Positions 1 through 25,567 are shown, counted from the first letter of the stretch. The stretch is DNA of 25,567 nucleotides from a virus (IMGVR_UViG_3300006927_000070:1-25567), one strand, 5' to 3'. The notes: generated by a model from the letters alone, not told the origin. A program made the numbers and translations.

Positions 1-150
1 CCATCAAGAGCTGCAGATTTAGTACAAGCTTATGATCAAACTACAAATACTGTATATCCAGTATCAAATACTCAATCATTTATAGCATCAAGTAATCAAA
101 ATATAGGTGATTATAATAGATCTATTAGAAGTCATCAAAGTGCGGGGTAA
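1..150 (+). CDS. 3' end of a gene truncated by the window edge, possibly tape measure protein
   Basis: Frame 1 is open from base 1 to TAA at 148-150 (PSRAADLVQAYDQTTNTVYPV...HQSAG). Identity is inferred only from its position before Dit-like and hub genes. Confidence 0.45.
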   Translation, partial: PSRAADLVQAYDQTTNTVYPVSNTQSFIASSNQNIGDYNRSIRSHQSAG

Positions 151-156
151 TAAATA

Positions 157-612
157 ATGGCATTACAAGTATGTTTATATGACGGTGGATCAATAAGATA
201 TGCATTAAAAGCAGATTCTTTTTCTATTAACTATGTAAAAACACCTATTCAAACACCTCTTCCACAAGGTGCAGATCCTGTTGTTTTAGATTTTGGACAT
301 TTAAGACCAACTATAACTATTAGTGGACTTGTAGATACAACGGCTCCCGGAAGTGTGGAAAATGTATCTGGTCCAAATAAAGGTAGTAGTACAACTTATA
401 CAGTTCCTAGTAAAGCTTTATTAGAAGATTTTGTAACCACCAAATTTTATGATTCTAGTAGTCAAATAGTACAGATAATGCTTTCTGACGGCTCATCTTC
501 TGCTGTAGCAACTTATGATGCAGCTATTTCACAAGCAAGATTTGATTTAGCTCCGGCTACTGAAGATAGATTTAGTTTTACTTTGGTATTATTAACCAAG
601 AAAAGGAGTTAA
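157..612 (+). CDS. Putative distal tail (Dit)/tube-fold tail protein
   Basis: 151 aa, beta-rich pattern (PLPQG..VLDFG..RPTITISG; RFSFTLVL), located between a probable TMP and the hub/spike gene. Confidence 0.5.
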   Translation: MALQVCLYDGGSIRYALKADSFSINYVKTPIQTPLPQGADPVVLDFGHLRPTITISGLVDTTAPGSVENVSGPNKGSSTTYTVPSKALLEDFVTTKFYDSSSQIVQIMLSDGSSSAVATYDAAISQARFDLAPATEDRFSFTLVLLTKKRS

Positions 613-615
613 AAA

Positions 616-3600
616 ATGACCCTTACCACCTTTGAACAAAAAGCTTCAAAAGTATACGCTTGGGTACAAGTGGGTGAACTTAATGACACGTCAGATGATG
701 GGGGTGATGGAGCTAACACTGGTATATCTAATTCTAGAACAGGTATAACAGTTAGAAACACTAGATTTAATGGTGAAGCTAATTCTATTGGACATAGAAT
801 AGAAGAAGGAATGGAAGTTCTTATAGATTCAGAAATTATGAAAGTTACAGATTGTGATAGTAGAACAGATACTGAAATAACTGTAACAAGAGGTGAGCAT
901 ACTCATGCTAAAATAGGTAGTATAGGGGGTGCTGCAGCAGCACATTTAACAGGGGCTGCTATTTATGCGTGGTCTGAATTAAAAGATTTAGCTACCGGGG
1001 CACCTTTAATTCAACATTTAACTATTACTGAATCAGTATATGAACCAACCATGCTTGAATTAACTTTAAGTCATCCTCCTCAAACAACTAGATATGGTGT
1101 AGGAACTTTAGAGGGGTTAATAAAAGAAAGAACTCCTTTAAAAGTAGTTGAAGGAGAAAATTTTTCTGTATTATTTAGAGGTAATATAAATCGTATTACT
1201 AGACAACATGCATTAGAAGAGGGAAATACTTTAGATGTTGTAGCTTTTGATAATTTATATGAGTTTGGTAGAAGTAAAATAGGTGGGGCTGATGCTGATG
1301 TAAAAATAAACGGTTCGGGAGGTGGTGTTGTATCTGTAGCTGATGGAGGATTAAATCAATCAGTAGGTAGTGTATATCTAGTTTCAGATGTAATTAAAGC
1401 TTATATTCAAAGATTTCAAAAAGGTGGATCAGCAAGTACACTAGGAGTAGGTGAGAATATTACAACTGCAGAAACTGTATCAGGTAGTTCAGCAAGATTT
1501 GAAACTTCCGCAGCTACTAAAGAAAGTAATAATGTTAATACTACTGTTAATTTAGGTACAAGTAATACCAGTGTATTACGAGGTATAACTCGATTAGCGA
1601 TGTCAGATAGTCATGTAAACGGTGTTAAATTTGGATATAATTATTATTTAGATCCGAATAATACGAGTTTTTCTACAGGACATAAATCTGTCCCAGTATT
1701 TAATTATTTTAAATCTAGTTTTATGCCAGCTCCGTCTCAACATACTTCACCTAATACTTCTACTATGAATATTGATTATGATAAATCTGGTGGAGTTACT
1801 CAAAATAGTGATACTAGATTAATGAAACCCGGAGCTTCTTTTGATGCTATAGATGTAGACAGAATAAATACAATAAATGTACGTTATAGAAGTCCTCATT
1901 CAGGAGATTTACAAGAAATTGAGTTTGAAATATTTCATTATGATAAAATTAAAAATACTAATAATAGATTAGATTCAGCATATAGTTCAACTTCTGGAGG
2001 TAAAGAGTTTATAGCTCCAAAATTTTCTATTGCATCTGCTGATGGAGGAAGTACAGCCCTTTCTCCAGATGTAGTAGGAGTTGATGATCCTTTATTAAGA
2101 GTTACTGGAACAATTACTGAGTGGCAAAGTAGAGTAGTAGATGAAAATGATAATATAATAGGGTATTTACAATTTATAAGTAATCAATGGGGAGCGTATA
2201 GTGCTGATGATGAATCCGATACAGTGGGATTTGCATTATTATCAGGTACAAGTACACGAAGAGCTAACTCTGATGTAGCAGCGGAGGAAAAATTATATTT
2301 AAATAAATATGCAAATAATGATTATATTCAATTAACAGCAGTAACTGATCCAGCAGCTCCAAATTCTTATCGCCCTCAAGCAGCTGCAAATGAAAAAATT
2401 ATGGTTAATTTAGATGTCGGATTTATTGATAATTTTAATGATATTAGACAAGCTGTAGCAGCTAAATTTTCTCAAGCTCAAGCTTCTAAAATAAGAGGTA
2501 GATTTCAAGTAGATGGTAAATATCCAACCACCTGTTTTGATCAACAAGCATTAGGTGCAGACACAATAGGAACTACAACTGATGCGTCATATACAATAAC
2601 TGAATTTACTGATGCTAGTAGAGGAGCTGGGCTACAAGAACATGGAAATTTAGGACATTCAGTTTCAACATATTCATCGTTAGGTTTACGAGCTGGGCAT
2701 AGTATAGCTAAATTAACTGGAGCTAATGGAACAGTTGATACTCATGGATACTTAGCAAGAGTATCTAATACTAATACTGGAGTTGATCTGACTTTTAAAT
2801 TAAATTCAGGAACAATATCTGCTGATGATTATTTTAGATTACATGTGCCTGTAAGAGCAGGACATGTAATTAATGTTGAATCAGGATTCCATAATATAGC
2901 TATTACTACAGGAGGTACGTGTGTAGTAACTTCTTTAGTATATTATGAATCAGGTGAAAGATCATATACAGATTTTGAGACTTTAGGATTAAGTCAAGCA
3001 GCTACTCAAGAAGTAATCGCTTCTCCTAGACCATTAGGAAATAATTTAGATGATTATACAGATGATGATTATAAACAATTTAGTGAAATTTTTACTCAAC
3101 AGGGAGTAGCGGTTCCTCCTTTGTTTACAGGATCAATTATGCCGGGAATCACTTCAGCTCCTACACAAAGAACGGGTTATGCAATACGTTGGACTAAAGG
3201 TATTTTGTATTACGGAGGTCGCCAATATGGTATAGCTGCTGGAGATTCATCTTCATTAGCAATGTCTACTGCTGATACTGATAATGATGGATTATCTGAT
3301 ACACAATATATATTATTTTTTGAACCCGGTGCTAGTAAAACTGCTTTTCAATTTAATACCTCATTGCATTTTGAGCGAAGAAATGAAAGTGAAGGTAGAT
3401 CTACGGCTGCTGTACATACTAGACCTTATTCAAGTAGAAGATTAAAAATTGCAACATGTTGGTCATCAAAATCAAATGCTCACGCTACTGCTTCTACAGA
3501 AGGGGCTTTAGTTAAAATATTTCCGGCTATACAGTTAGGAATGTCTAGACTACAAGATGATAGTACAAATTATTCAAGTGTAACTCAAGACACTGGTCCT

Positions 3601-4077
3601 ATTCCTCCAATGATAATAGGTGGAAGAATGTTATCAGGAGATGTAGCACATCATTGGCAACCAACTGAAGACGATACATATAACTTAGGTATTGCAACAG
3701 GAGGTTCTGGAAGCACTGCCTTTAGATGGAAGCAATTAATTGCAGGAACAACAACAATTTCAACATCAGATGCAAGAGAAAAAATAAATATTAAAGATAA
3801 CAATTTAGGTTTAGATTTTATAAATGACTTAAGACCCGTATCTTTTGAGTGGCAGAATCCTAAAAAAACGGGGTCAGTTCATAGAGGTATTGTTGCTCAA
3901 GAAGTTGTCGAGGTTTTAAAAAAATATGGTATAAATGATTTAAGTGAATTTGCTGCGATTACTAAACTTGGAGATAGTTATGGGGCAAGATATGAAGAAT
4001 TTGTAGCTCCATTGATTAAGGCAATTCAAGAACTATCTGCGAAAGTAGAACAGTTAGAAAATGAAGCCGAAGAATAA
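616..4077 (+). CDS. Tail hub/central spike protein with C-terminal peptidase S74 intramolecular chaperone
   Basis: SD AGGAG upstream. N-terminal IDSEIMKVT..ITVTRG..AAAH module; hub-like LFRGNINRI..LDVVAFD; C-terminal S74 signature SDAREK..LRPVSFEW..GIVAQEV..YEEFVAPLIKAIQEL with terminal coiled coil. Confidence 0.85.
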   Translation: MTLTTFEQKASKVYAWVQVGELNDTSDDGGDGANTGISNSRTGITVRNTRFNGEANSIGHRIEEGMEVLIDSEIMKVTDCDSRTDTEITVTRGEHTHAKIGSIGGAAAAHLTGAAIYAWSELKDLATGAPLIQHLTITESVYEPTMLELTLSHPPQTTRYGVGTLEGLIKERTPLKVVEGENFSVLFRGNINRITRQHALEEGNTLDVVAFDNLYEFGRSKIGGADADVKINGSGGGVVSVADGGLNQSVGSVYLVSDVIKAYIQRFQKGGSASTLGVGENITTAETVSGSSARFETSAATKESNNVNTTVNLGTSNTSVLRGITRLAMSDSHVNGVKFGYNYYLDPNNTSFSTGHKSVPVFNYFKSSFMPAPSQHTSPNTSTMNIDYDKSGGVTQNSDTRLMKPGASFDAIDVDRINTINVRYRSPHSGDLQEIEFEIFHYDKIKNTNNRLDSAYSSTSGGKEFIAPKFSIASADGGSTALSPDVVGVDDPLLRVTGTITEWQSRVVDENDNIIGYLQFISNQWGAYSADDESDTVGFALLSGTSTRRANSDVAAEEKLYLNKYANNDYIQLTAVTDPAAPNSYRPQAAANEKIMVNLDVGFIDNFNDIRQAVAAKFSQAQASKIRGRFQVDGKYPTTCFDQQALGADTIGTTTDASYTITEFTDASRGAGLQEHGNLGHSVSTYSSLGLRAGHSIAKLTGANGTVDTHGYLARVSNTNTGVDLTFKLNSGTISADDYFRLHVPVRAGHVINVESGFHNIAITTGGTCVVTSLVYYESGERSYTDFETLGLSQAATQEVIASPRPLGNNLDDYTDDDYKQFSEIFTQQGVAVPPLFTGSIMPGITSAPTQRTGYAIRWTKGILYYGGRQYGIAAGDSSSLAMSTADTDNDGLSDTQYILFFEPGASKTAFQFNTSLHFERRNESEGRSTAAVHTRPYSSRRLKIATCWSSKSNAHATASTEGALVKIFPAIQLGMSRLQDDSTNYSSVTQDTGPIPPMIIGGRMLSGDVAHHWQPTEDDTYNLGIATGGSGSTAFRWKQLIAGTTTISTSDAREKINIKDNNLGLDFINDLRPVSFEWQNPKKTGSVHRGIVAQEVVEVLKKYGINDLSEFAAITKLGDSYGARYEEFVAPLIKAIQELSAKVEQLENEAEE

Positions 4078-4513
4078 AGTTGTTAGACTACGGGAAAGAA
4101 ATCCCTTTATGTCAACAGCTGAAATTGCCAAACAAGTTGGCATAACTAGGCAATATGCTAGAGAAGTTTTATTGAAAAATAATCTGCAAACTAACCCGCC
4201 TAAACCTAAACGTGTGGTATACTGTAAAGTATGCACAGAAATAACTACTGATCGTGGTGGAATCCATAAAGGAAACTGCTCCTTTAAGTGGAAATTTAAA
4301 AGACTTGAATGTTCTTGGTGTTCAGTTCCTTTTTATAGAACTAGAAAACGTATAAAACATGGATACAAATTAAAATTAAAAAATGTATACTGTTCACAGC
4401 AATGTTATCAGGATAAGAGGAAAGACGATAGTGAAAATAGACAACGATTTAATTTTAAAATGGGAACCGAAGATAAACAGGATGGTATCGAACATTTATA
4501 TACAGGGTTATGA
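4061..4513 (+). CDS. HTH plus zinc-finger DNA-binding protein (putative regulator)
   Basis: HTH NPFMSTAEIAKQVGITRQYAREVL, followed by CKVC..HKGNC and CSWC..YCSQQC metal-binding motifs. Confidence 0.7.
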   Translation: MKPKNKVVRLRERNPFMSTAEIAKQVGITRQYAREVLLKNNLQTNPPKPKRVVYCKVCTEITTDRGGIHKGNCSFKWKFKRLECSWCSVPFYRTRKRIKHGYKLKLKNVYCSQQCYQDKRKDDSENRQRFNFKMGTEDKQDGIEHLYTGL

Positions 4514-4976
4514 TAGAGATGACTTATCCCAAGAATTACGTTTAATTGTTATAAAAGCTGCTAAATTATATAACCCTAATAGAAATGCCATTTTTCATAC
4601 TTATTTACATACTGCTATGGCAAATAGGCTTAAAACTTTATGGGTTCAAGCAAGTAAAAAACTACAAAGTTATAGTTTAGACATGCAATCTGATTCAGGT
4701 GATGACAATTCTTATAAATTAAGTGACTTTGTAAAACAATTAGATAACAATTTAGATGAAGTAGATTTTATTGATTGGATAGATTCGTTAGACTTAGATC
4801 AGGGAGAAAAACAATTCCTTACAAATAAACTACAAAACCACACTATGAAAGACATTGAAGAGAAATTAAAAAAGATTTCTGATAAAAAGATAGTCAATGG
4901 AGAAGAAAGTGTGGTAAACTACTCAATATACAAAGTAAAAAAATCACTTAGAAATAAGTTAAACGAAGAGAAGTAG
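4431..4976 (+). CDS. Phage-encoded sigma-70 family (SigH/ECF-like) sigma factor
   Basis: Region 2 pattern DRDDLSQELRLIVIKAAKLYNPNRNAIFHTYLHTAMANRL; region 4-like HTMKDIEEKL..IYKVKKSLRNKL. Start moved to the in-frame GTG at 4431, which follows AGAGGA. Confidence 0.8.
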   Translation: MKIDNDLILKWEPKINRMVSNIYIQGYDRDDLSQELRLIVIKAAKLYNPNRNAIFHTYLHTAMANRLKTLWVQASKKLQSYSLDMQSDSGDDNSYKLSDFVKQLDNNLDEVDFIDWIDSLDLDQGEKQFLTNKLQNHTMKDIEEKLKKISDKKIVNGEESVVNYSIYKVKKSLRNKLNEEK

Positions 4977-4978
4977 TA

Positions 4979-6217
4979 TTGGAAAATTTTAATTTTATCG
5001 AGTCTGGAGTTATTTTCAGTTTGTGTGATTCGGGGAATTTCAAGAATTTTACTTATTCCCCAAAAGATTTTGCAGAGCATGGAGAAACCTACAAATTTAT
5101 TCAACAATATATTGATGAATATTCAGACTTCCCCACACCAGAAATTTTATTAGAGAAATTTGACACTCTTAAATCTGAAGCCCAATCCGTTAATTTTAAT
5201 TATGCATTAAATGAATTTGGTAAACAAGTTATGTTTAGGAATATTGTTAATGCTTTTGATTCAAATCAATTAATGTTAGATGATAATCCTAAAAAAGCAT
5301 TAGGAATGATTATGGATGATCTAAATGATGTAGAGATATTACATGATGAAGATGTTAATCAATATGATAATGGTGGCTTAGATAGATACGAAGAGTGGCA
5401 AAGAAGAAGTTCTATTAGAAAAATGGGGGATGGTTTAATAGGTATACGGACTCCTTTCCATATGATTAATGCAGCAGGTGTTGGATGGCAAGCTGGAGAT
5501 TTAATTACTGCTTATGCTAGACCGACAGTAGGAAAAACATGGTTATGTTGTAAACTTGCCTCAGATGCGATAAGAAGTGGTTATAAAACTTTACTTGTAT
5601 CTACTGAAATGACTTCTTCAGCTATTGCTTTGAGAATGGATGTATTACTTGGGCAATCATTAGGATATAAATTATCTCATAGTGCTTTACGAAATGGTAG
5701 AGCTATAGATGAAAATGAGTATAAAAAATTTCTAACGGAAGTTAATTTTAAAAATTTACTAGTATGCGATCATATTAGTGGAGAAGATAGTATCTCTTTA
5801 CCTAGTATCACGAATTTAGTACGGAAGTATAGTCCGGATGTACTTATTATTGATGGAGTATATTTAATTTCTACTGCTGATAGGAATAAAGCAGCTTGGG
5901 AACAATCTCATTCTTTATTTTATGGGTTAAAAACTATGGCATTATCTACAAATACAACAGTTATAGCCTCAACTCAAGCAACAAGAGATGCCTCAAATAT
6001 GTATAATCAACCAACTGCAGGACAAGTAGCCTTTGGAGATGCTTTAATTAGAGCTTCAGATGTAGCTATATCAATGTGTATGATTGAAGATGAGCCACAA
6101 CTAAGAGAAATAATGTTTCAAAAATATAGAGATGGAGATTTAGGAGCTTCAACTACTGAATTTATTTGGGATGTAGATAAAGGTAGAATAGAGGAGAATC
6201 ATGACACGCTTAATTAA
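4979..6217 (+). CDS. dnaB: DnaB-like (SF4) replicative helicase
   Basis: Walker A ARPTVGKT, STEM, Walker B LIIDG, TQATR, KYRDG arginine-finger motif; TTG start. Confidence 0.93.
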   Translation: MENFNFIESGVIFSLCDSGNFKNFTYSPKDFAEHGETYKFIQQYIDEYSDFPTPEILLEKFDTLKSEAQSVNFNYALNEFGKQVMFRNIVNAFDSNQLMLDDNPKKALGMIMDDLNDVEILHDEDVNQYDNGGLDRYEEWQRRSSIRKMGDGLIGIRTPFHMINAAGVGWQAGDLITAYARPTVGKTWLCCKLASDAIRSGYKTLLVSTEMTSSAIALRMDVLLGQSLGYKLSHSALRNGRAIDENEYKKFLTEVNFKNLLVCDHISGEDSISLPSITNLVRKYSPDVLIIDGVYLISTADRNKAAWEQSHSLFYGLKTMALSTNTTVIASTQATRDASNMYNQPTAGQVAFGDALIRASDVAISMCMIEDEPQLREIMFQKYRDGDLGASTTEFIWDVDKGRIEENHDTLN

Positions 6218-6422
6218 TACTAAATGTGGTAAATGTTCTGAGGGTGGTAAATTAAGAGTAGGTAAAACTATAATTGATATGTATTCATTATTAAAAAAAG
6301 AAGTATTAGGATTAGTGCGTAACGATCCTTATTGTTTTCAGTGTGGCACAACTTTTCCAGATGGATTTTGGAAGGAGGAAAATGGGTATCTCTACAGGGT
6401 ATATCTCCCGAAGTTTAAATAA
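6201..6422 (+). CDS. Small zinc-ribbon protein
   Basis: CGKC...CFQCG; SD GAGGAG upstream; lies between helicase and primase. Confidence 0.65.
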   Translation: MTRLINTKCGKCSEGGKLRVGKTIIDMYSLLKKEVLGLVRNDPYCFQCGTTFPDGFWKEENGYLYRVYLPKFK

Positions 6423-6423
6423 T

Positions 6424-7299
6424 ATGATTAATTCAATAGATTGGACACAAGCACTACTTAATTTAGGCATAGATGTGCCTGTAGGTAATGAAGAAATATC
6501 TATATTATGTCCTTTTCATAATGATACAACAGAATCTTGTTCAATAAATACAGACAAAGGTGTATGGATTTGTTTTGCTGGATGTGGGCAGGGAAGTTTA
6601 AAAAATTTCATACAACAATATATGGAGTGGGATTTTCAACAAGTCAATTTATATATTACTGATTATAAAAATACAATTAAAAGTAATATATTTAATATAC
6701 CATCATTCACTATCGAAGATTTATCATTACCTGAAGTATCTATACCATATAAATCTGGTAGTGTACCTAGATGGATATTTGACAGGGGTTTTAATAAAAC
6801 TACTATGCGTAAATGGAATTGTAGTATAACTCCTTCTAATGGTTTAGTAATTCCAATTCAAGATAAAGATTCTAGAACTGTAGGTTGGATTACTAGACAA
6901 GAAAAAATGATACCTAAATATTTATATTCAAAAGGACTTAAAAAGTCTTACGTATTATTTGGTCAATCATACATACAACCTTGTGATGCAGTGTGTATAA
7001 CAGAAGGTACTTTGGATACTATGTGGTTAGATCAATTAGGATTTCCATCTGTTTCATTACTTGGAATGAGTATGTCTAATAGACAACGTGATTTATTATT
7101 GACATTGCCTACTAAAGAGATTATACTATGTTTAGATAATGATGAAGCGGGGCAAATAGGTAAACAAAGAGCTATGAAATTATTAGGTAATAAAATCAAA
7201 GTTTCTTATATTAATATACCTAAAGAATATAAAGATGTGCAAGATATCAAATCTTATGATATAATTAATAATATAATTAATAATAAAAAATATTGGTAA
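6424..7299 (+). CDS. dnaG: DnaG-type DNA primase (CHC2 zinc finger + TOPRIM)
   Basis: CPFHND..CFAGC zinc finger, PKYLYS, TOPRIM ITEGTLD and LDNDEAG. Likely start is ATG 6424, right after the upstream stop. Confidence 0.92.
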   Translation: MINSIDWTQALLNLGIDVPVGNEEISILCPFHNDTTESCSINTDKGVWICFAGCGQGSLKNFIQQYMEWDFQQVNLYITDYKNTIKSNIFNIPSFTIEDLSLPEVSIPYKSGSVPRWIFDRGFNKTTMRKWNCSITPSNGLVIPIQDKDSRTVGWITRQEKMIPKYLYSKGLKKSYVLFGQSYIQPCDAVCITEGTLDTMWLDQLGFPSVSLLGMSMSNRQRDLLLTLPTKEIILCLDNDEAGQIGKQRAMKLLGNKIKVSYINIPKEYKDVQDIKSYDIINNIINNKKYW

Positions 7300-7309
7300 C
7301 GGAGGATAT

Positions 7310-8041
7310 ATGTCAGGAATCAGTATGATACAAAATAATATAACAAGTAGAGAAACTAGGTCTGCTCAAGCTGCCGCAGCTAATGGTAAGGAAGTTTGGT
7401 TAAAAGATGGAGATCAAGTTTTTATGAAATCTATGGCTACAGGAGAAGAAGGTGATATACATATGGAAGAATTTTATGTATATGAATTTCAACAGGGAGC
7501 TGATAGAGGTTGGACAAGTGTACTAGTTGAAAATGGAGAACCAGTTGATTCTGTTCCAAGTGAAGCTATGGTGCATGAGGATGGTCGAAGGAAAGCTCCA
7601 AAACACAAGTTCGCACTTTGGGGGTATGTAACTGAAATATTGCATACAGAACAAAGAGTAGACTCTTGGGAACAAATAACTAGTCCGTCTGGTTCAAAGC
7701 TTTATAAAGAAACAGTTAATGATTTTAAAGTATTAACTCTATCTTTTGGAGCACAAAATAGTAATTGGAATCAATTCGTAGATATATACGAAGATGATGG
7801 TTCGTTGGATAAAAATGTTATAAGAGTGAGAAGAAGAGGTACAAGCCTAGACACTACTTATACAATTACTTCTACATCAGGTGATTTAGATTTACCTGAA
7901 GATAAACAAGCAGAAGTAAAAAATCTTACTCCAATAAAAGAGTATGTAGGTCAAAGATATGGTACTTTAGAAACAGAAACAGATGCAGTACCATCTGATG
8001 CTGTAGCTATTGATAACGATGATGACGACTCTTTATTCTAG
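7310..8041 (+). CDS. Single-stranded DNA-binding protein (T4 gp32-like)
   Basis: Between primase and polymerase; RRRGTSLDTTYTI motif; acidic tail ending in a hydrophobic residue (DNDDDDSLF); SD GGAGGA. Confidence 0.75.
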   Translation: MSGISMIQNNITSRETRSAQAAAANGKEVWLKDGDQVFMKSMATGEEGDIHMEEFYVYEFQQGADRGWTSVLVENGEPVDSVPSEAMVHEDGRRKAPKHKFALWGYVTEILHTEQRVDSWEQITSPSGSKLYKETVNDFKVLTLSFGAQNSNWNQFVDIYEDDGSLDKNVIRVRRRGTSLDTTYTITSTSGDLDLPEDKQAEVKNLTPIKEYVGQRYGTLETETDAVPSDAVAIDNDDDDSLF

Positions 8042-8060
8042 AGCATCAACCTCCATAACA

Positions 8061-8100
8061 GCAGACTCTCCGGATTTAAATGTCCTTCCGGGGAGTTTGC
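8061..8100 (+). promoter_or_regulatory. 14-bp stem-loop between ssb and polA
   Basis: GCAGACTCTCCGGA (8061-8074) pairs with TCCGGGGAGTTTGC (8087-8100) with two G-U pairs and a 12-nt loop. No U-tract follows. Confidence 0.7.
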
Positions 8101-8111
8101 ATAATTTACCT

Positions 8112-10088
8112 ATGATTGTAACCTCAGACACATTTACAGATACATTAAATTCTTTACCTGATACATCTGAATGGATTATAGATGTAGAAACTAACGGATT
8201 TAATCCTTATAATATGAATCAAATATGTGGAATCGGATTAGTTCCATTGAATTATTCTGATGCAGAAGCATATTATTTTCCATTTAGACATCAATCAGAA
8301 GAACCTAATTTAACTCAAACTGAATTAAATCAATTAGTATCTTTTATAAATGATAAATGTGACACTATTATAGGGTACAATGTTAAATTTGATTCTAAAT
8401 TTTTGGAGAATGAAGGTGTTAATATAGACAAGATGAAACTTGTTGATGTATTAGTGATGGTTAGAATGACTGAATCTACTATAGTAAATAGATTAAGTTT
8501 AACTGATACTATAATAAGGAGTTACGGCGAAGAAGCTGGACTTTATGATTTAGAGACTAAAAAAGTTTTGAAGAAAAACAAATGGTTTAAAGATTTTTCT
8601 TTAGCTCCACCATCTGTACTTGGTCCATATTGTATAAAAGATGTATATTGGACTCATAAAGTTTACACTGATAGATTACGAAAATTAGAAATAAGTAAAC
8701 AATTAGAATTATTTGAGTTTCAGTGTGATTTAACTAAAACTTTATATATGATGGAGAAAAGAGGGGTAGTAATAGATAATAAATATGCTAATAGTGCGTA
8801 TGAAAAAACTGTTGCTAGAATAGAAGTATTAAAAAATCGTATATATGACTTAGTAGGACATGAATTTAATATAAGTAGTACTAAACAATTAGGAGAAACC
8901 TTTAATAATATGGGTATTCATTCTCCTTTAAGAACTGCAAAGGGTGCAGAAGCGTGGAATGAAGAAGCCTTAGTAAGACTTAACTCTCCTTTAGCAGGAT
9001 TAGTAAGACAATATAGAGCTTTAGAAAAAATACGATCTACTTACATAGAACCTTATTTAGAATTACCTGTGCTTCATACAAGTTTTAATAATTGGGGCAC
9101 TGTTACAGGAAGATTGTCTTCTAGTTCACCTAACTTACAGAATATACCTAGAGATATTGTATATGTTGAAGATAGAGATTTATCTGAATCTGATAAAGAA
9201 GAAGTAAAGGGTAGAGTAGCGGCTATAGTTTCAAGTAAGGGTGGTAACGCTAATACAGAATTAACTGATGAAGTATTAAATACTTGGAGTTTCTTAGGTG
9301 GAGATAAATTTGATATTGAAGATACTAGACAAATAGCCATAAGAAATATTTTTATACCTAGAGACGATTACAAAATGGTGGCATATGACTACTCTCAAAT
9401 GGAAGTTAGAGTATTTATGCACTATGTAAACAATGAAGAGATGAATAAACTCATGAAACAAGATAATGTTGACTTTCATGGAGAGGCAGCAAAGATAGCT
9501 TTTAACATTACTGAAGATGATACTCAATTTAAATTTTATAGACAATTAGCTAAATCAATTACTTTTGGAGTTATATATGGTATTGGTAAAGATAAATTAG
9601 CGTTGCAATTAAATACTACTCCTATTTTAGCTGCTGATTATAAGAATACATATTTACAAAATATGAAAGGCTCTAGAAGATTCTTTAATTCCGTAGTTAG
9701 AACTATTAAAACAGAAGGAATGGTTAGGAATAAATATGGTAGAATATATAGAGTACCTAATGAATTTGGTTATAAAGGTGTAAATTATCTTATTCAAGGT
9801 ACTAGTGCAGATATAATGAGTGAACGTATGGTTGCTGTGGCAAAATACCTAAAGGATAAGAAGAGTAATTTACTTCTACAAGTACATGATGAGATTATTT
9901 GTGAAGTACATAAAGACGAAGTAGATGAAGTTGCTCCTAAAATAAAAGAACTTATGAAAGAAAACAGTTTAAATATTCCTTTAGAGGTTGATATGGAAGT
10001 ATGTTACCCTTCGTGGGCAATTAAAAAAGATTTTGAAGAGAAAAAAGTTACTATATTTAAATTAGAAGATTATATAGAGTGGGATTAA
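8112..10088 (+). CDS. polA: Family A DNA polymerase with 3'-5' exonuclease, no 5'-3' exonuclease domain
   Basis: ExoI DVETNG, ExoII YNVKFD, ExoIII YCIKD; TGRLSSSSPNLQNIP; motif A DYSQMEVR, motif B RQLAKSITFGVIYG, motif C QVHDE. Start placed at ATG 8112, after the hairpin. Confidence 0.96.
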   Translation: MIVTSDTFTDTLNSLPDTSEWIIDVETNGFNPYNMNQICGIGLVPLNYSDAEAYYFPFRHQSEEPNLTQTELNQLVSFINDKCDTIIGYNVKFDSKFLENEGVNIDKMKLVDVLVMVRMTESTIVNRLSLTDTIIRSYGEEAGLYDLETKKVLKKNKWFKDFSLAPPSVLGPYCIKDVYWTHKVYTDRLRKLEISKQLELFEFQCDLTKTLYMMEKRGVVIDNKYANSAYEKTVARIEVLKNRIYDLVGHEFNISSTKQLGETFNNMGIHSPLRTAKGAEAWNEEALVRLNSPLAGLVRQYRALEKIRSTYIEPYLELPVLHTSFNNWGTVTGRLSSSSPNLQNIPRDIVYVEDRDLSESDKEEVKGRVAAIVSSKGGNANTELTDEVLNTWSFLGGDKFDIEDTRQIAIRNIFIPRDDYKMVAYDYSQMEVRVFMHYVNNEEMNKLMKQDNVDFHGEAAKIAFNITEDDTQFKFYRQLAKSITFGVIYGIGKDKLALQLNTTPILAADYKNTYLQNMKGSRRFFNSVVRTIKTEGMVRNKYGRIYRVPNEFGYKGVNYLIQGTSADIMSERMVAVAKYLKDKKSNLLLQVHDEIICEVHKDEVDEVAPKIKELMKENSLNIPLEVDMEVCYPSWAIKKDFEEKKVTIFKLEDYIEWD

Positions 10089-10089
10089 T

Positions 10090-10633: not shown

Positions 10634-10634
10634 T

Positions 10635-13759: not shown

Positions 13760-13761
13760 TA

Positions 13762-14432: not shown

Positions 14433-14454
14433 AGATTATTATAGGAAGTATATT

Positions 14455-14674: not shown

Positions 14675-14680
14675 TAAAGA

Positions 14681-16138: not shown

Positions 16139-17774
16139 TGAATTAACTACATATGAAAAGGCATTTGAATTACTCGCAGAGAAATTAGAAAAGAGTAATA
16201 AATTTGCTATAGGAAGTTTCTGGGAATTTGTTAGAGATATCTGGTCAGAAGGGTTTGAACACCCTGAGTATTTTAAAGCTTGGCATGTAGGAAAATTATG
16301 TGAAGAAGTTGAAGAATGTATTGAAAATAAATTAAATTATCTCGCTATATTACCTAGGGCACATTTCAAATCTACAATATTAGGGCACGCCTTTAGTATT
16401 TGGAGAAGTTTAAAAGTACAAGGTAATGCTAATATTTTATATTTGTCTTATAGTGATACTATGGCTAAGTATCATATATCTGAAATTAATAAAGAAGTTA
16501 ATCGTAATCCTATATTAAAGGAAATGATGACTAATAGAGCTCCTAAAGCTGATTTTACTTTTAGATATGACACAGGAAACGGTGGTAGTGCAGAGATATT
16601 ACATGGGGGATTATTTTCTTTCAAAAGAGGTATGCACGTTAATGGGGCATTAATTGCTGATGACATATTGAAAGACCCTGAAAGTCCTTTAGCAATAGGA
16701 CAAATGGCTAAAATTGAAGACCATTTTCTTACAGAGTCTCTATTCATACCTAATCGAGATGTACCAGTAGTAGTTGTGGGAACACCTATGATGCCCGGAG
16801 ATTTACTGACAGTACTAGAGAGAGATGAAAGATTCGTATCTAGAAAACTTCCTGCTCTTGATCCCGAACCGGGTAGAAGAGTATTGATGCCAGAATTATA
16901 TAGTGAACAATGGTTACTAGAACAACAAAAAGCTAAACCTAAATCATTTGCATCAGAGTTTTTGTTACAACCTCATTTTAATACAGAAGCATATTTCGGT
17001 ACTGAAGATATTGAGAAGTGTGAGGATGATAATTTAAGATCTTTACCTACAACTTTAAAACATAATTTTGAAGATGATGAAGATATCTTTGCAGGGTTTG
17101 ACGTAGGTAAAAAAAGACACCCATCTCATTTAGTAGTATTCAAAAGAAAAGGTGAACGTATAGAACAGATTCATCAATCATGGTTAGATGGTTGGGATTA
17201 TTCAGATCAAATAGTATATTTAAATGAAGCTGCTGAAAATTTCGGACTTACAAAAGGTTACATAGATAATACAAGAGGTGAGTTAGAGGATAGAGGATTA
17301 GCTAGAGCTTGGTATCCTTTAGCATTTAGTTTAAGGTCTAAAAATAATATGGCACATATATTTGAAGAATACATTCATTCAGGTAATTTATTTTTAATAA
17401 GAGATCATAGACAAAGACAACAAATTCTTTCTGTAAATAATGAATTAAAAGCTCCTGAGACCCCTATGGGTCATGGGGATGCTTTCTTTTCTATTGCTAT
17501 GGCATTACAAGCTGCATATGAAACAGGTATTTATAACATGCAAACTATAGGTGATTTACAAGATTTCGTATCAGATGTAGAACCTTCATTAAAATATCAA
17601 AATTTAGATAAAAATAAACCAGAAAAGCTACTTGATTTTGATAAAAAAGTGTATAATGATAACAGCATAGATTTACAAGCACCCAATCCTTCGTGCACGG
17701 AAGATGTTTGTGGTCCCTCATTATGGGTGCCCGCTAGAGGTTTATGTTTATACTGCAATTATCGAAGATCATAG
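16131..17774 (+). CDS. terL: Terminase large subunit
   Basis: Walker A variant PRAHFKST, Walker B LIADD, coupling motif VGTP, nuclease GFDVG and HGDAFFSIA. Confidence 0.92.
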   Translation: MRDELTTYEKAFELLAEKLEKSNKFAIGSFWEFVRDIWSEGFEHPEYFKAWHVGKLCEEVEECIENKLNYLAILPRAHFKSTILGHAFSIWRSLKVQGNANILYLSYSDTMAKYHISEINKEVNRNPILKEMMTNRAPKADFTFRYDTGNGGSAEILHGGLFSFKRGMHVNGALIADDILKDPESPLAIGQMAKIEDHFLTESLFIPNRDVPVVVVGTPMMPGDLLTVLERDERFVSRKLPALDPEPGRRVLMPELYSEQWLLEQQKAKPKSFASEFLLQPHFNTEAYFGTEDIEKCEDDNLRSLPTTLKHNFEDDEDIFAGFDVGKKRHPSHLVVFKRKGERIEQIHQSWLDGWDYSDQIVYLNEAAENFGLTKGYIDNTRGELEDRGLARAWYPLAFSLRSKNNMAHIFEEYIHSGNLFLIRDHRQRQQILSVNNELKAPETPMGHGDAFFSIAMALQAAYETGIYNMQTIGDLQDFVSDVEPSLKYQNLDKNKPEKLLDFDKKVYNDNSIDLQAPNPSCTEDVCGPSLWVPARGLCLYCNYRRS

Positions 17775-17786
17775 AGGAGGTTTATT

Positions 17787-19664
17787 TTGGTCACATTATC
17801 ACAACAAGCAGAAACAGTAGCATCAAAAAGATATTATTTAAAGGACGAGTCAGGAGAACCAGAAGAAACTGTAAGGGGTTTATTTCAAAGAGTTGCAGAA
17901 GCCATCGCTTTATCTGAAATACAGTATGGAAAATCTAATGCTGATACGGATTTAACACAAAAAGAATTTTATGATATGTTATCTAATCTTGATTTTGTTC
18001 CTAATTCTCCTACGTTAATGAACGCTGGAACTGAACAAGGAACTTTGTCTGCATGTTTTGTGCTACCTTTAGAAGATAGTATGGAAGATATAATGAAGAC
18101 TGCACATGATATTGCTATGGTTCAAAAATTTGGAGGGGGCACAGGATTTGCATTATCTAAATTACGACCAAGAGGAGACCACATTAAAACTACACATGGT
18201 ATAGCTTGTGGTCCAATTCAAGTATTACAAACTTTATCAAGAGTCTCTTCTATGATTACTCAAGGCGGAAAAAGAGATGGAGCCAATATGGCAGTTATGT
18301 CTATTGATCATCCAGACATTCTTGAGTTTATTAATTGTAAAAAAGTAGAAGGAGATATACATAACTTTAATATATCAGTTGGTGTAAGTTCTAATTTTAT
18401 GAAAGCAGTAGAATCTGATAGTGAATATCCCTTGATTAATCCACATACTAATAAAATCGTTGGTTATTTAAATGCTAGAGAAGTATTTTCTAAAATAATT
18501 TATGGGGCATGGAGGAATGGTGAACCGGGAATAATATTTTTAGATAATATAAATAAAGATAATCATGTTAAATCACAATATGGAGAGATGATTGCGACCA
18601 ATCCATGTGGTGAACAACCATTGTTAGCGAATGAATCATGTAATTTAGGGTCAATTAATTTAGCTAATTTTGTAGATGTTAAACAAATAAAACCTTATAT
18701 TAAATGGGAAGACCTTAAAACCACAATTAAATTAGCTACAAGATTTTTAGACAACGTAATTGATGCTAATTATTATGCAACTTCTGATATAGAAAAAATG
18801 ACTAAATCAACTAGAAAAATTGGTTTAGGTGTCATGGGATTTGCTGATATGCTTACACAACTTAGAGTTCCCTATGATTCTAAAGAAGGTAGAATAATTG
18901 GAAATGATGTAATGAAATTTATTAGAACTCATGCGGATGAAACTTCTAAAGAATTAGCTGAAGAAAGAGGTGTTTTTCCTGCATGGCATGAAAGTGACTA
19001 TTCTGAGGATGCAAAATATAGGAATGCATGTAGACTAACTGTTGCTCCAACGGGAACTATATCTATGTTTGCAGATACATCTAGTGGTATTGAACCCTTA
19101 TTTTCGTTGGCATATAGAAAAATGAATATATTAGAAGGGGAAACTCTTTTTTATGTAAATAAATATTTTGAACAAGATGCTAAAGAATTAAATTTTTATT
19201 CAGAAGATTTAATGGAACATTTATCAAATGGTGGTTTATTAAAAGATAGAGGTGAAATTCCAGAAGATATAAAAGAACTTTATAAAACTTCTCCTGAAAT
19301 ATCTCCTGAATCTCATGTTGGAATGCAAGCAGCTTTTCAGGAATATTGTGATTCAGGTATTTCTAAGACGATAAATTTTGCAAATGATGCTACAATAGAA
19401 GATGTGCATACAGCTTATATTGATGCATGGAAGTCTGGATGTAAGGGTATAACTGTATATAGAGCTGGTAGTAGGGATAAAGAAGTGTTAGTTACAGCAC
19501 ATAAAACTGAAAATAATGAACAACTTAATTTTTTTGATGAAATAGAAACACCAATTAGTGATGAATATTTCTTTGCTGAATGTTGTGATTCACCTAGAAT
19601 TGCAATGGAATCAGGATGTAGAACATGTAAATCTTGTGGTTGGAGTGCTTGTTATATAGCATAG
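17787..19664 (+). CDS. nrdJ: Class II (adenosylcobalamin-dependent) ribonucleotide reductase
   Basis: PNSPTLMNAG, SACFV, GGGTG, TNPCGEQ, CNLGSINL, APTGT, SSGIEP, KGITVYR; C-terminal GCRTCKSCGWSAC ribbon; no ATP cone; no adjacent nrdB; TTG start after AGAGGAGG. Confidence 0.93.
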   Translation: MVTLSQQAETVASKRYYLKDESGEPEETVRGLFQRVAEAIALSEIQYGKSNADTDLTQKEFYDMLSNLDFVPNSPTLMNAGTEQGTLSACFVLPLEDSMEDIMKTAHDIAMVQKFGGGTGFALSKLRPRGDHIKTTHGIACGPIQVLQTLSRVSSMITQGGKRDGANMAVMSIDHPDILEFINCKKVEGDIHNFNISVGVSSNFMKAVESDSEYPLINPHTNKIVGYLNAREVFSKIIYGAWRNGEPGIIFLDNINKDNHVKSQYGEMIATNPCGEQPLLANESCNLGSINLANFVDVKQIKPYIKWEDLKTTIKLATRFLDNVIDANYYATSDIEKMTKSTRKIGLGVMGFADMLTQLRVPYDSKEGRIIGNDVMKFIRTHADETSKELAEERGVFPAWHESDYSEDAKYRNACRLTVAPTGTISMFADTSSGIEPLFSLAYRKMNILEGETLFYVNKYFEQDAKELNFYSEDLMEHLSNGGLLKDRGEIPEDIKELYKTSPEISPESHVGMQAAFQEYCDSGISKTINFANDATIEDVHTAYIDAWKSGCKGITVYRAGSRDKEVLVTAHKTENNEQLNFFDEIETPISDEYFFAECCDSPRIAMESGCRTCKSCGWSACYIA

Positions 19665-19684
19665 TTCTCAGTTTTATAAAAAAA

Positions 19685-19694
19685 TAGTATAATA
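19685..19694 (+). promoter_or_regulatory. TAGTATAATA promoter-like box 2
   Basis: Intergenic after nrdJ, ahead of SD AGGAG and ATG 19712. Confidence 0.75.
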
Positions 19695-19711
19695 ATAGTA
19701 GGAGAAAAGAT

Positions 19712-20122
19712 ATGCCTATAGGAAATATGTTAAGAGATAGACAAGAACAGTATGTTGCCCAAAAGGACACTGCTGGAACTTGGAGAATTCTTGATACTTG
19801 GCACAAAGATTTGACTAAACTAAACCCGGAAGATGAAGTAGATGACTCAAGTGAGGCAGTTACTATTATATCAGAAGGGGGATTTCTAGCTTTAGTTAGA
19901 GAAGCAACTAGATTAGGAGTATTACAAAATGCGGCTATGATGGAGAATGAAGCTTTGGCTGATCAAGTAGTAGAATTAAAAGAAGAAAACGATAGATTAC
20001 GAATACAAAATGAAAATACCCCTGCAACAATACATGAAGATAAAGCAGGATTAAAACAACATGCAATAAACACGATAGCTAAAATAGTGGCTATAGATAG
20101 TGTTGAAGTAACCAAGGAATAG
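19712..20122 (+). CDS. Hypothetical protein with coiled coil, upstream of portal
   Basis: SD AGGAG; ENEALADQVVELKEENDRLR heptads. Confidence 0.75.
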   Translation: MPIGNMLRDRQEQYVAQKDTAGTWRILDTWHKDLTKLNPEDEVDDSSEAVTIISEGGFLALVREATRLGVLQNAAMMENEALADQVVELKEENDRLRIQNENTPATIHEDKAGLKQHAINTIAKIVAIDSVEVTKE

Positions 20123-20127
20123 CATAT

Positions 20128-22089
20128 ATGAAATTAGGAGATTATCTTCCAGAAGTTCCTGAAATGGCTAAAACAATGGGTCAATTAGGCTCTCAGATAG
20201 ATATATTCAATGATTTAATGTTGAATAAAGCTGCAGGAGATACTGGTAGTGGACCTACATTTGGTGTCGATTACATAGTAAACACTTATGTAAGAAACCA
20301 ACTCGCATATAGAAAACAATTAATTCAAGATTTACAAACTGTAGCGTATACTGCTGAAGAATTAAGAGCTCCAATTTTACATATAACAGGTGAAGTATTT
20401 AGAAGAGGTATCCAATTTGAACCTGTTGTAGAAAATCCTGATGAATCTCAATTAGATAGAGTCAAAGAGTTTATGGATGACTGTAATGTTTTTGATCAAG
20501 GTTTAGAAGAAGTATTACGACAATTTCATTGGGATTTAAATACTGTAGATGATGCATTTTTATACTTTGCAAAAGAATATTATGATGCAGGAGATAGTAA
20601 ATTACGTTCTAGAGTAACTGAAATTAGAAGAATAAATCCTGCTCTTATAGAATTTGATTTAGATGAAACAGGATTACCTAAAAACTCACATTTCTTTTGT
20701 CCTTTACATAGAGAACAGATAAAAGAATCTCCAGAAGAATGCCCAGAAAAAAAGTGTGAACAACAATTACAACCTGCTATGTATAGATATTTATACAGAA
20801 CAGAAGTACATTACTTTTTAGATAGTGAAATTGTACATTTATCTAAATTCAATCCAACTGAGACTTATGGTTGGTCACCTATTTTAACAATATTTGAAAA
20901 AGCTCTTACTTTAATCGGTATGGATAGAAACTTATATAGGTATTTCTTTGAAAGAAAAATGCCTGCATCTATGGTTATGGTAACTACAGATGATCCTGAA
21001 AGTTTAAAGAGAGAAAGAGAAGCTCTTGCAGCTAAAACAAGGTCAGATCCAAACTATATACCAATGATAGCTGTATCTTCTAGAACTAATAGAGGTAGAG
21101 TTGACATGGTAAGATTATTCCATACATTACAAGAAATGGATTACTTACCTGTAAGAGCTGAAATTAGAGAAAGAGTTTCTGCTATATGGGGTGTTGCCCC
21201 AATGTGGCAAGGAGCCCCAGATTCATTTGGTGGTTTAACACAACAAACAGCCCAATTAACTGTAATGGGTAGAGTTGTTGAAAGAGATCAACGCCAAATA
21301 ATGGAAAAAATATTTCCAGCTGTTTTAGATAATTTTGGTGTAACAGATTGGAAATTAGTATTACCTAATCCTGAAGAAAAAGCAGAAGCGACTAGAATTG
21401 CTCAATCACAACAAAAAGCTGCTATTGCTCAACAAATGTTAAGTATGGGATTTGATGTAACACTTAAAGGTAATAAATTAGGAATTGATCAACTTGACTT
21501 TATAGTAACAGGTGAACCTGTTCCAACTGCTAAATTACAAGGAGAACAACAAGCACTTGCATTAGAACAAGCAGAACAACAAGCTGCTATGCAAGAAACA
21601 ATGATGGAACAACAAGCAGCTCAAGAAGGGGGTGGTCAACCACCACAAGAAGGAGAAGCCCCAGAGGGTGAAGAAGAAGCCCCAGAGCGTGAAGGAGGGG
21701 CTCAAGAAGTACCTATTGAAAATGCAGTACCAGATACTCCCAGAGGATTAGAAAATATAGAATCTAAAAATATTAAAAATCCAAATTTAAAAAAATCAAC
21801 TCTAACATCTACATGGATAGATAGTCTAGCTAATCAAGGTTATAACTATCCCATTATTAAAGAAGTATCTGCAAATGGTCAACAAATATGGTTTGCTAAT
21901 AATGGAGAAGAATATGTAGGTAATCTTACAGGAACTGGTATAGATAAAATTGAAAAGGCATACTTCGGTAATCCAGTATTTTCTGATGTAGGAGGAAAGA
22001 AACCACTTAGCGATGCTTACACAGCAGAAACAGGAGATGGTACATCAAAGCGTAAAGCAGTAGATGTATCAGAAGATGAGGATAACTAA
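20128..22089 (+). CDS. Portal protein with Cys/His insertion and long C-terminal extension
   Basis: EIRRINP, EIVHL..YGWSPI, YFFERKMP, EMDYL..RERVSAIWGVAP match the HK97-type portal pattern; downstream of terminase. Confidence 0.88.
   Translation: MKLGDYLPEVPEMAKTMGQLGSQIDIFNDLMLNKAAGDTGSGPTFGVDYIVNTYVRNQLAYRKQLIQDLQTVAYTAEELRAPILHITGEVFRRGIQFEPVVENPDESQLDRVKEFMDDCNVFDQGLEEVLRQFHWDLNTVDDAFLYFAKEYYDAGDSKLRSRVTEIRRINPALIEFDLDETGLPKNSHFFCPLHREQIKESPEECPEKKCEQQLQPAMYRYLYRTEVHYFLDSEIVHLSKFNPTETYGWSPILTIFEKALTLIGMDRNLYRYFFERKMPASMVMVTTDDPESLKREREALAAKTRSDPNYIPMIAVSSRTNRGRVDMVRLFHTLQEMDYLPVRAEIRERVSAIWGVAPMWQGAPDSFGGLTQQTAQLTVMGRVVERDQRQIMEKIFPAVLDNFGVTDWKLVLPNPEEKAEATRIAQSQQKAAIAQQMLSMGFDVTLKGNKLGIDQLDFIVTGEPVPTAKLQGEQQALALEQAEQQAAMQETMMEQQAAQEGGGQPPQEGEAPEGEEEAPEREGGAQEVPIENAVPDTPRGLENIESKNIKNPNLKKSTLTSTWIDSLANQGYNYPIIKEVSANGQQIWFANNGEEYVGNLTGTGIDKIEKAYFGNPVFSDVGGKKPLSDAYTAETGDGTSKRKAVDVSEDEDN
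21649..21690 (+). repeat. Two imperfect 21-nt tandem repeats in the portal linker
   Basis: GAAGGAGAAGCCCCAGAGGGT / GAAGAAGAAGCCCCAGAGCGT encode EGEAPEG / EEEAPER. Confidence 0.8.
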
Positions 22090-23261
22090 TGTCTAAATTT
22101 AATCCTAAAGATGCCTCGTATAAAAATGTACCTAAAACTGCTTCCCCTAAATCTCCAAACGAACCCGGTGAATACGAAGATCATTCCTATAATCATAGAG
22201 AAGTAAGACCTGATGGTGCGACAGTTTATTATTATGACAATGGTGTAAAAGCCATACATCATCCTAAAAAAACAGGAGCTACTTATCATCGTAGAGCAGC
22301 TGATCATCATAAAAAAGAAGCTGATAAAGCTGTGGATTCTAAAAAAAGTAAATCAGCTCTAGCACATTTAAAAGCTAGATTAGGTCATTTGTTAGCTGCA
22401 GACGATAAAGATTCTAAAGTAGAAAAGTTATATAAAGATTTTGGAGGAGCTGAGTCAGGAGCTAGTGATATTGTAGCAGTAGCATCTGATCCGGGTATAT
22501 TTACTAACACTTATAGTGGTACTAATACTAAAAAGAATAAAAGTAAAAAGAATGAAGTAGAAGAAAATAAGAAAAATAAAAAGAAAGCTAGTGGTCCAGA
22601 TAAATTAGATAAGTGGTTAAAAGATACTGAAGAAAAGACACTACATTTATTTGATCTTACTAAATCAGATCCTACCCCTAAATATGATAAGGGCAGAACA
22701 GGAGGATTAACTCCTGATCATAATGTAAAAACATCTTTAGAAGAAAGAGATATGGAATCATGGATGGAAGCTAGAGAAAAAAATGCAGAAGATAGAGCTT
22801 TCGGTCTTAAAAAAACTGCACAATTAAGTGATTATGTAGTAGATTTAATTAATGATGTGCGAAAAGAACTAGATGATGATTCTCCAAAATATGTTGAGCA
22901 GTATGCTGATCAAACTCAAGAAGAATTTGACAATCAATTAGAAGCTTATGATTGGTTAACAGAACAAATTGTAAATGATTTTAAAAAAACTCAAATAGAT
23001 TTTAGAAAAAACCCTGAAAAATATAATGTATTTGTAAAACCAAACGATGAGTCTGTGGAAAAAATGGAAACAGACTGGTCAAAAACCAAAAAAGATGATA
23101 AACTAATTAATATGCCTTTTTTAAATCATTATAAAAAATCTATAGAAGGTAGGAGGGAAAACCCTCCAATAGTAGAAAAACAGTATGGGACTAAAAGAAG
23201 CCCCAGACCAGACCCAAACGGGCATAGGAACCCACCTAATAGGAGGATTCCTAAAGATTAA
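22089..23261 (+). CDS. Highly charged low-complexity protein, possible internal head protein
   Basis: TAATG-coupled to portal; rich in K, D, E and H, with few hydrophobic segments. Confidence 0.65.
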   Translation: MSKFNPKDASYKNVPKTASPKSPNEPGEYEDHSYNHREVRPDGATVYYYDNGVKAIHHPKKTGATYHRRAADHHKKEADKAVDSKKSKSALAHLKARLGHLLAADDKDSKVEKLYKDFGGAESGASDIVAVASDPGIFTNTYSGTNTKKNKSKKNEVEENKKNKKKASGPDKLDKWLKDTEEKTLHLFDLTKSDPTPKYDKGRTGGLTPDHNVKTSLEERDMESWMEAREKNAEDRAFGLKKTAQLSDYVVDLINDVRKELDDDSPKYVEQYADQTQEEFDNQLEAYDWLTEQIVNDFKKTQIDFRKNPEKYNVFVKPNDESVEKMETDWSKTKKDDKLINMPFLNHYKKSIEGRRENPPIVEKQYGTKRSPRPDPNGHRNPPNRRIPKD

Positions 23262-25330: not shown

Positions 25331-25340
25331 TAGTATAATA
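25331..25340 (+). promoter_or_regulatory. TAGTATAATA promoter-like box 4
   Basis: In the largest intergenic gap, preceded by an AT tract, about 130 nt upstream of ATG 25470. Confidence 0.75.
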
Positions 25341-25382
25341 AAAGTGACTATAAAATTATAATGTTTTATACTTAATTGTAAA

Positions 25383-25463
25383 AAGGTCGGAGGTGGCTTA
25401 GACCAACCTTATTTAAGGTTAAACATAAGTAATTTTTTATAAATTAAACCTTAAACAAGGAGG
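25383..25463 (+). promoter_or_regulatory. Structured 5' leader with alternative hairpins
   Basis: GGTCGGAG/CTTAGACC stem; AACCTTA 25405-25411; TTTAAGGTT 25412-25420; AACCTTAAA 25447-25455; SD AAGGAGG 25457-25463. Confidence 0.55.
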
Positions 25464-25469
25464 CTATAA

Positions 25470-25567
25470 ATGGCTGATGAAATTCTAAACAGGATTGAAA
25501 AGCACATGGAAGGTACGTCATTAGGTTTGGCGGCTCTTGCAGAAGTGCTTCAGAAAATGGATGGAAG
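25470..25567 (+). CDS. 5' end of a gene truncated by the window edge, possibly capsid scaffold/head protein
   Basis: SD AAGGAGG; MADEILNRIEKHMEGTSLGLAALAEVLQKMDG is open to the edge. Function inferred from position only. Confidence 0.7.
   Translation, partial: MADEILNRIEKHMEGTSLGLAALAEVLQKMDG

Follow-up and report, generated by a model that had tools for sequence, protein, structure and literature searches.

Avoidance of CCWGG and other short motifs in a family of marine phages, and predicted GATC nucleases among its relatives

Why would a phage genome contain not a single CCWGG? The question was raised by IMGVR_UViG_3300006927_000070 (25,567 bases, hereafter the window), a co-directional block of genes from a tailed double-stranded DNA phage. 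A first-pass annotation had claimed that CCWGG is absent from the window and that all ten coding Pro-Gly pairs use the rare Pro codons CCC or CCG before GGN. It called for counts against null models, a test of Pro-Gly codon bias, a repeat in related phages and a search for CCWGG restriction-modification (R-M) genes in the predicted host. We confirmed the absence, with both CCAGG and CCTGG counted 0 times. A Markov model predicted 13.8 occurrences, making CCWGG the most depleted 5-mer of the window, and shuffling synonymous codons within the 30 called genes gave an expectation of 12.2±2.0, with a minimum of 6 among 1000 shuffles. At the same time, CCSGG was in excess (13 versus 2.5 expected from codon shuffles). 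The ten Pro-Gly pairs were found exactly at the positions claimed (346, 1828, 3142, 3325, 12461, 16794, 16869, 18525, 22164 and 22491), and all use CCC-GGN or CCG-GGN. These codons are indeed rare, as CCS accounts for 27 of the 278 remaining Pro codons, giving P about 7e-11 for ten out of ten before Gly. An eleventh Pro-Gly, at 8088, precedes the likely start of the polymerase (8112). Contrary to the annotation, CCWGG is not a lone case; by codon shuffles, GGCC (0 versus 6.1 expected, P=0.002), GCGC (0 versus 5.6, P=0.004) and CGCG (0 versus 3.4, P=0.023) were also absent, and GATC (51 versus 72) and TCGA (11 versus 31) were partially depleted.

The family-wide ban and the CCWGG/CCGG switch

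The window is a fragment of a marine phage of ~80 kb. Its sequence was present in 20 runs from 17 studies, every run carrying a marine metagenome label, and its complete relatives G366 and G367 (81 and 82 kb) have a completeness rating of 99-100%. CCWGG was also zero in a near-identical 34-kb record and in these two relatives (0/20, 0/60 and 0/52). Among the viral loci of the first three scans 194 of 214 lacked CCWGG, and none was present in 66 close loci totalling 624 kb, redundancy included. After dereplication, 45 of the 50 loci of at least 8 kb lacked CCWGG but contained CCGG, three lacked CCGG but contained CCWGG, two contained both, and no locus (0/50) lacked the two together. The CCWGG ban extends over GC contents from 32 to 45% and down to a terminase identity of about 62%; in the low-GC branch GGCC, GCGC, CGWCG and CGNNCG are absent alongside it.

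Because every CCN-GGN sequence includes one of the sites CCWGG and CCGG, a lineage that keeps Pro-Gly can ban only one of the two. On a quick ribonucleotide reductase (RNR) tree of 64 rows, a CCWGG-tolerant group (7 rows, support 97) was nested among avoiders, and L059 and L061 formed a second tolerant branch. Within the tolerant group, G368 had 39 CCWGG and 0 CCGG, and Pro-Gly was spelled with CCW in 28/28 cases in both G368 and G706, 23/23 in G707, 14/14 in G708 and 15/15 in G709; only the codons of G710 were mixed (4 and 3). Both choices occur in the phage family, most members banning CCWGG and a nested sister clade banning CCGG. Restriction-site avoidance as such is textbook knowledge. Here the codon constraint is directly visible, as Pro-Gly forces the choice between the two sites, sister clades have chosen oppositely and dipeptides vanish from proteomes.

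As in Type II site avoidance, elimination goes beyond the expectation from composition and codons and affects short palindromes on both strands. We have high confidence that some nuclease caused the CCWGG avoidance. The earlier proposal of selection by a CCWGG-recognising nuclease is upheld to this extent, in that the ban is absolute and family-wide, codon choice satisfies it, and the products of deamination show no excess. The proposed sources of the nuclease fared unequally: host R-M is favoured, a nuclease of the phage has no candidate gene for CCWGG, although there are strong signs of self-avoidance for GATC in relatives, and the modification-dependent option finds little support. The features of the window and of related loci on which the argument draws are as follows.

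1..25567: phage fragment without CCWGG, GGCC, GCGC, CGCG, CGWCG and CGNNCG, by motif counts
346..22496, + strand: ten coding Pro-Gly pairs, all CCS-GGN, the source of 10 of the 13 CCSGG sites
10090..10272, + strand: ribosomal protein S21 gene, at most 51% identity to the Dehalococcoidia tested, no host information
10969..11376, + strand: gene of 135 aa without a match to known families, occupying the variable slot that separates the DNA polymerase and RecA genes
12819..13103, + strand: DUF559/Vsr-like nuclease with weak likeness to T7-type endonuclease I, in CCWGG-free and CCWGG-tolerant relatives
13082..13759, + strand: Cas4-like exonuclease, a core gene of both CCWGG-free and CCWGG-tolerant relatives
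17310..17318, + strand: terminase Trp-Tyr-Pro; Trp-Trp-Pro, which spells GGCC, in the GGCC-tolerant G004, G370 and L064
17787..19664, + strand: ribonucleotide reductase, 60-63% identity to one Dehalococcoidia lineage, the main host clue
L023:4760-5263, L025:4682-5263 and L035:984-1649: DUF7004 genes, predicted GATC nucleases

A host restriction enzyme as the favoured source

With a probability of about 0.55, we consider that CCWGG was lost to a Type II restriction enzyme that some members of the host population carry. A CCWGG-cutting endonuclease inside host cells would destroy unprotected phage DNA. If the phage is unmethylated and lytic, as we infer, each site would cost infections, and patchy, mobile R-M systems would suffice to purge it in very large populations. 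Where Pro-Gly is retained, one of CCWGG and CCGG could be banned, rare CCS codons being used under a CCWGG ban, and Trp-Pro would be dropped from proteins under a GGCC ban. GATC is a separate case, whose purge we predict to be due to the phage's own slot gene (see below). A host source is favoured because each genome bans some 5 to 20 palindromic or degenerate motifs, more than the small number of phage nuclease genes seen would account for, and because CCWGG-type enzymes occur in the likely host family.

Among the 30 proteins of the window, family searches detected neither a methylase nor a restriction family. In five phage records, two of them complete, PF00145 and PF01555 (C5 and N4/N6 methyltransferases) gave 0/5 matches, as did the EcoRII-C and MvaI families, for which the controls were silent in these records; the EcoRII-C and MvaI/BcnI profiles did match in separate searches of host-family genomes. 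No methylase was found among 145 further proteins of at least 80 aa (142 cluster representatives and three picked). A small gene of G366 (L261:5073-5375), with a DUF3574 match and a sub-cut-off SAM-lyase match, is a possible anti-restriction gene.

According to Rusinov 2018 (PMC6286503), site elimination is associated with orthodox Type II systems and with phages of the non-temperate kind. The dsDNA phages described there share with the present family the full loss of several short palindromic sites and the lack of an own methylase. They differ in that here the host enzymes are only inferred, the loss of Trp-Pro reaches the protein level, and a switch from CCWGG to CCGG is mapped on a tree. 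Marine phages have been found to methylate CCWGG, GGCC/RGCY and GGWCC, according to passages of Hiraoka 2022 (PMC8919816) and PMC9516812. The same motifs are under pressure there, but are kept methylated, whereas here they are removed.

The host is likely to belong to the small-genome marine Dehalococcoidia, judging from gene similarities. The search covered Dehalococcoidia only. The single cellular match to the reductase in a genome scan was a Dehalococcoidia record (58%), and among 301 Dehalococcoidia genomes nine matched at 60-62%, the next at 53%. On a careful RNR tree of 31 rows the phage clade stood beside the G098 family with weak support (81/46). A transporter gene of G366 displayed 67-69% identity to G098 and G328, G098 being the best among the 301 genomes of the order, and a named match reads Chloroflexi. 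The S21 gene was rejected as a host marker, its low identity not pinning the host.

The search for CCWGG R-M genes in this host gave a divided answer. Among the 121 genomes of the likely host family, EcoRII-C was present in 5, MvaI/BcnI-family matches, whose target may be CCWGG or CCSGG, in 16, and HaeIII in 7. In G347 a C5 methylase, a nicking gene and EcoRII are consecutive, and G316 avoids CCWGG itself (13 versus 158). EcoRII/MvaI/BstNI-type systems recognise exactly the banned site, CCWGG and not CCSGG; their genes were found neither in the small-genome candidates nor in the phages. N4/N6 methylases occur in 110 of the 121 genomes, with no CCWGG target assigned, and the small-genome genus members G328 and G373 carry methylase-plus-endonuclease cassettes of unassigned target. 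Dam-type methylases were seen in 2 of the 15 genomes of the candidate genus, one of them with stops. We also observed 16 to 23 N4/N6 methylase matches each, together with self-avoidance of CCWGG/GGCC, in G316, G321, G345, G355 and G430.

Several observations weigh against a host enzyme. Every genome with CCWGG- or GGCC-type enzymes is at least 2.2 Mb in size, so that these enzymes sit only in larger genomes and not in the small low-GC ones to which the host clues point. The small-genome assemblies are incomplete and defence islands may be missed. Six small low-GC candidates (356 kb sampled) show no self-avoidance (CCWGG 336 versus 353, GGCC 347 versus 262, GCGC 132 versus 127), and 1 of the 15 genomes of the candidate genus had a C5 methylase above the cut-off. 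The phage-host link itself is moderate, given the tree support and the restriction of the search to Dehalococcoidia. Pelagiphages of one host strain differ in CCWGG, HTVC011P and HTVC019P having none and HTVC010P 29 versus 30, which indicates that the phage matters and not the host alone. Finally, the phage family appears to carry GATC nucleases of its own.

Slot genes, GATC loss and the remaining explanations

Between the polymerase and RecA genes lies a swappable gene, and relatives of the window hold in this slot DUF7004, either of two PD-(D/E)XK-like groups, or HNH-like genes. The c5 and c7 slot proteins, encoded for instance at L204:2383-2892 and L040:4853-5278, display, by eye, a D...E-x-K pattern, together with a weak NOV_C match. 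GATC was below 15% of expectation in 14 of 15 carriers of DUF7004 or PD-(D/E)XK genes and in 0 of 17 non-carriers (Fisher 3e-8; 32 rows kept by hand from 58 after removing repeats, the lineages not being independent). The exceptional carrier was L042 (GATC 18 versus 61). One PD-(D/E)XK-like group is common to L020 and the distant G368 clade. HNH-like slot genes were observed in GATC-keeping relatives (L197:3154-4047 and L186:3072-3926).

The 25 viral loci with DUF7004 contained 3 GATC in 309 kb versus 951 expected, 0 or 1 per locus. Eight belong to the family of the window; for the other 17, comparison with five core proteins gave either no match or one of just 27%. The non-family viruses L494-L498, L500 and L406 also lack AGCT, CATG or TCGA. 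A methylase motif was found in 1 of the 25 viral loci, whereas 28 of 49 metagenome DUF7004 loci of at least 3 kb contained a methylase-motif gene. Of 19 DUF7004 neighbours, picked mostly for the methylase motif, 10 were Dam-type (PF02086) and 5 N4/N6 methylases and one was DpnII. Bacterial DUF7004 thus resembles DpnII/MboI-type GATC loci in its neighbourhood, and viral DUF7004 differs from them in standing mostly without a methylase, in GATC-free DNA. Taking together the bacterial neighbours and the GATC-free viral carriers, we predict DUF7004 to be a GATC nuclease. Its structural model (pLDDT 93) gave a best structural Z of 6.6 with no clear match. A new nuclease fold is possible; the lack of a fold match is not in itself evidence for one. 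No DUF7004 match was found in plasmids or cultured phages. Open-licence literature yielded nothing on DUF7004 function or solitary phage GATC nucleases, passages of PMC12707154 included.

The c7 protein matched 33 phage records, mostly pelagiphages; the slot gene of HTVC019P encodes AGE60597.1. Six cultured genomes were compared, and in the five that contain a homologue the GATC counts were 0/100, 0/150, 0/157, 0/145 and 0/86; HTVC010P, with no homologue and the same host as two of the five, had 126/142. HTVC011P, picked as a negative control, turned out to carry the homologue (E 7.5e-14). The slot genes (DUF7004, PD-(D/E)XK-like) probably encode GATC cutters that are retained in the absence of a methylase, and the slot probably holds at least three different predicted cutters of this kind, including DUF7004 and the unannotated gene that follows DNA polymerase in many pelagiphages. 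The reverse order is possible, in which hosts drove GATC out first and the gene was then acquired safely. T4 endonucleases II and IV and the chlorovirus R-M systems are virus nucleases from which modified bases or a partner methylase shield the viral genome; in the present phages, the missing site itself is predicted to give this protection. From the GATC link, which is correlative, a function is predicted for DUF7004 and for a hypothetical gene common among cultured pelagiphages. The link also implies that some avoidance credited to hosts would be self-protection from the phage's own weapon.

Could the ancient CCWGG ban then be the footprint of another, unrecognised phage nuclease? Marine lytic phages would, on this explanation, commonly carry methylase-free restriction-type nucleases with the site erased from their own genomes; a CCWGG nuclease would shred the host chromosome and co-infecting DNA, and absence of the site would protect the phage. 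We regard this as a serious though less likely alternative. In its favour are the apparent GATC precedent among the relatives, the nearly GATC-free DUF7004 loci, mostly outside the family, the Dam-type methylases that often adjoin bacterial DUF7004, and candidate hosts that are CCWGG-rich and mostly without C5 methylases. If it is true, the words that a viral genome lacks would tell which specificity its uncharacterised genes have. However, no gene in the sequenced core tracks CCWGG status; core nucleases are found in both CCWGG-free and tolerant genomes, the tolerant records being incomplete in the early region, and the slot gene differs from one CCWGG-free genome to another. EcoRII and MvaI families are absent from the five phage records, and bans on 5 to 20 motifs are not easily put down to one or two genes. 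The residues by which the core nucleases of tolerant lineages differ from those of free ones are confounded with phylogeny.

The window's own slot gene belongs to a family different from the DUF7004 and PD-(D/E)XK groups, and the window keeps its 51 GATC. As a CCWGG cutter it was rejected, since it is missing from most CCWGG-free relatives. GCACAC is at most a tentative target; the motif was found 0 times versus 17 in three carrier genomes, yet a single copy is present in each of three overlapping carrier loci from a different lineage. The protein had no Atlas match, no cultured-phage match and no alignment with the c5 family, and its single-sequence model was poor (pLDDT 53).

An unlikely source is nucleases brought by co-infecting phages, with avoidance serving as armour in phage-phage conflict. 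Solitary GATC nucleases are predicted in unrelated marine phages, and relatives without a slot nuclease, including the window, are still partly depleted of GATC. An ancestor that once carried the slot gene would also explain the latter, however, and none of the phages examined yielded a CCWGG-type nuclease.

More doubtful still is a host orphan methylase marking CCWGG, with the site lost by 5-methylcytosine deamination or by escape from a modification-dependent nuclease. The family-wide banned motifs are all cytosine-rich palindromes, and in one low-GC genome of the host family (L249) a C5 methylase adjoins a GmrSD-domain gene. But the putative deamination products were at expectation (CTWGG 22 versus 26.6, CCWAG 22 versus 20.1), on which ground deamination decay was rejected, and mutation cannot impose rare codons at ten of ten Pro-Gly pairs. 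C5 methylases are, moreover, rare in the candidate genus, and the N4/N6 methylases have no assigned CCWGG target. A compositional or codon-pair bias without any nuclease, which the low GC (32%) and CG-poor sequence might suggest, is highly improbable and was rejected, as codon-preserving shuffles restore about 12 CCWGG, CCSGG is in excess, relatives at 43-45% GC are also CCWGG-free and a clade of the same GC shows the mirror pattern.

Other banned motifs, lost dipeptides and further genes

Individual lineages add bans on motifs such as GATC, AAGCTT, GGWCC, CASTG or RGATCY. Summed over 41 loci without CGWCG (low-GC relatives, such as L260-L269), CGNNCG occurred 3 times versus 110 for CGNNNCG. 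We know of no enzyme with the specificity CGNNCG, and it may represent an undescribed one. Open-licence literature held nothing on it as an R-M site, the one passage checked concerning a sequencing ambiguity. The list of banned motifs, CGNNCG included, would read out the defences of uncultured hosts.

Since Trp-Pro codons always spell GGCC, a ban on GGCC removes this dipeptide from proteins. Trp-Pro was absent from the window proteins (0 versus 3.9 expected), from G366 (10.1 expected) and G367 (8.5 expected), and from other GGCC-free genomes. It occurred 6 times in G004 and 3 times in G370, both GGCC-tolerant, and in candidate hosts at expectation (58 versus 54.7). At the terminase position listed above, the window has WYP where tolerant relatives have WWP. 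Trp-Pro was also 0 in G368, G709 and G710, although a few GGCC are present there. A specific depletion of Pro-Gly at the protein level is at most tentative, as Gly-Pro was depleted as well. In HTVC019P (L402) and HTVC011P (L538), which lack CCWGG, CCGG, GGWCC and GGCC, we observed that Pro-Gly, Gly-Pro and Trp-Pro are all absent from called genes (Pro-Gly expected 21 and 19); HTVC010P retains 15 Pro-Gly. With both CCWGG and CCGG banned, the dipeptides are given up. Nothing on dipeptide loss through site avoidance was found in open-licence literature.

Other words in the window deviate from expectation, with an excess of GCCCC (21 versus 7) and GGGCA (26 versus 9) and a deficit of GCACC (12 versus 28) and GGTGA (26 versus 43). 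Avoidance of GWGCWC as the cause of the excess was not supported (4 versus 7.5). GGAGTT/AACTCC, perhaps a phage regulatory motif, occurred in long coding sequences 2 times versus 34 in G366 and 0 versus 26 in G367, and overall 16 and 12 times (L260-L269).

The genes of the window comprise those for a tail protein, sigma-like factor, helicase, primase, family A polymerase, S21, RecA, DUF559, Cas4-like and RuvC-like nucleases, terminase, ribonucleotide reductase and portal. No tRNAs were detected in the window or in 24 related loci. In the CCWGG-tolerant clade and in higher-GC branches, the interval between polymerase and RecA showed no S21 gene. Two conserved short open reading frames with hydrophobic products lie at 14280-14432 and 14507-14674. 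Relatives carry host-type genes for a Bmp substrate-binding protein, a member of the poly(A)/CCA-adding enzyme family, thioredoxin and Hsp20 (L263:18219-19364, L273:18689-19999, L274:4416-4820).

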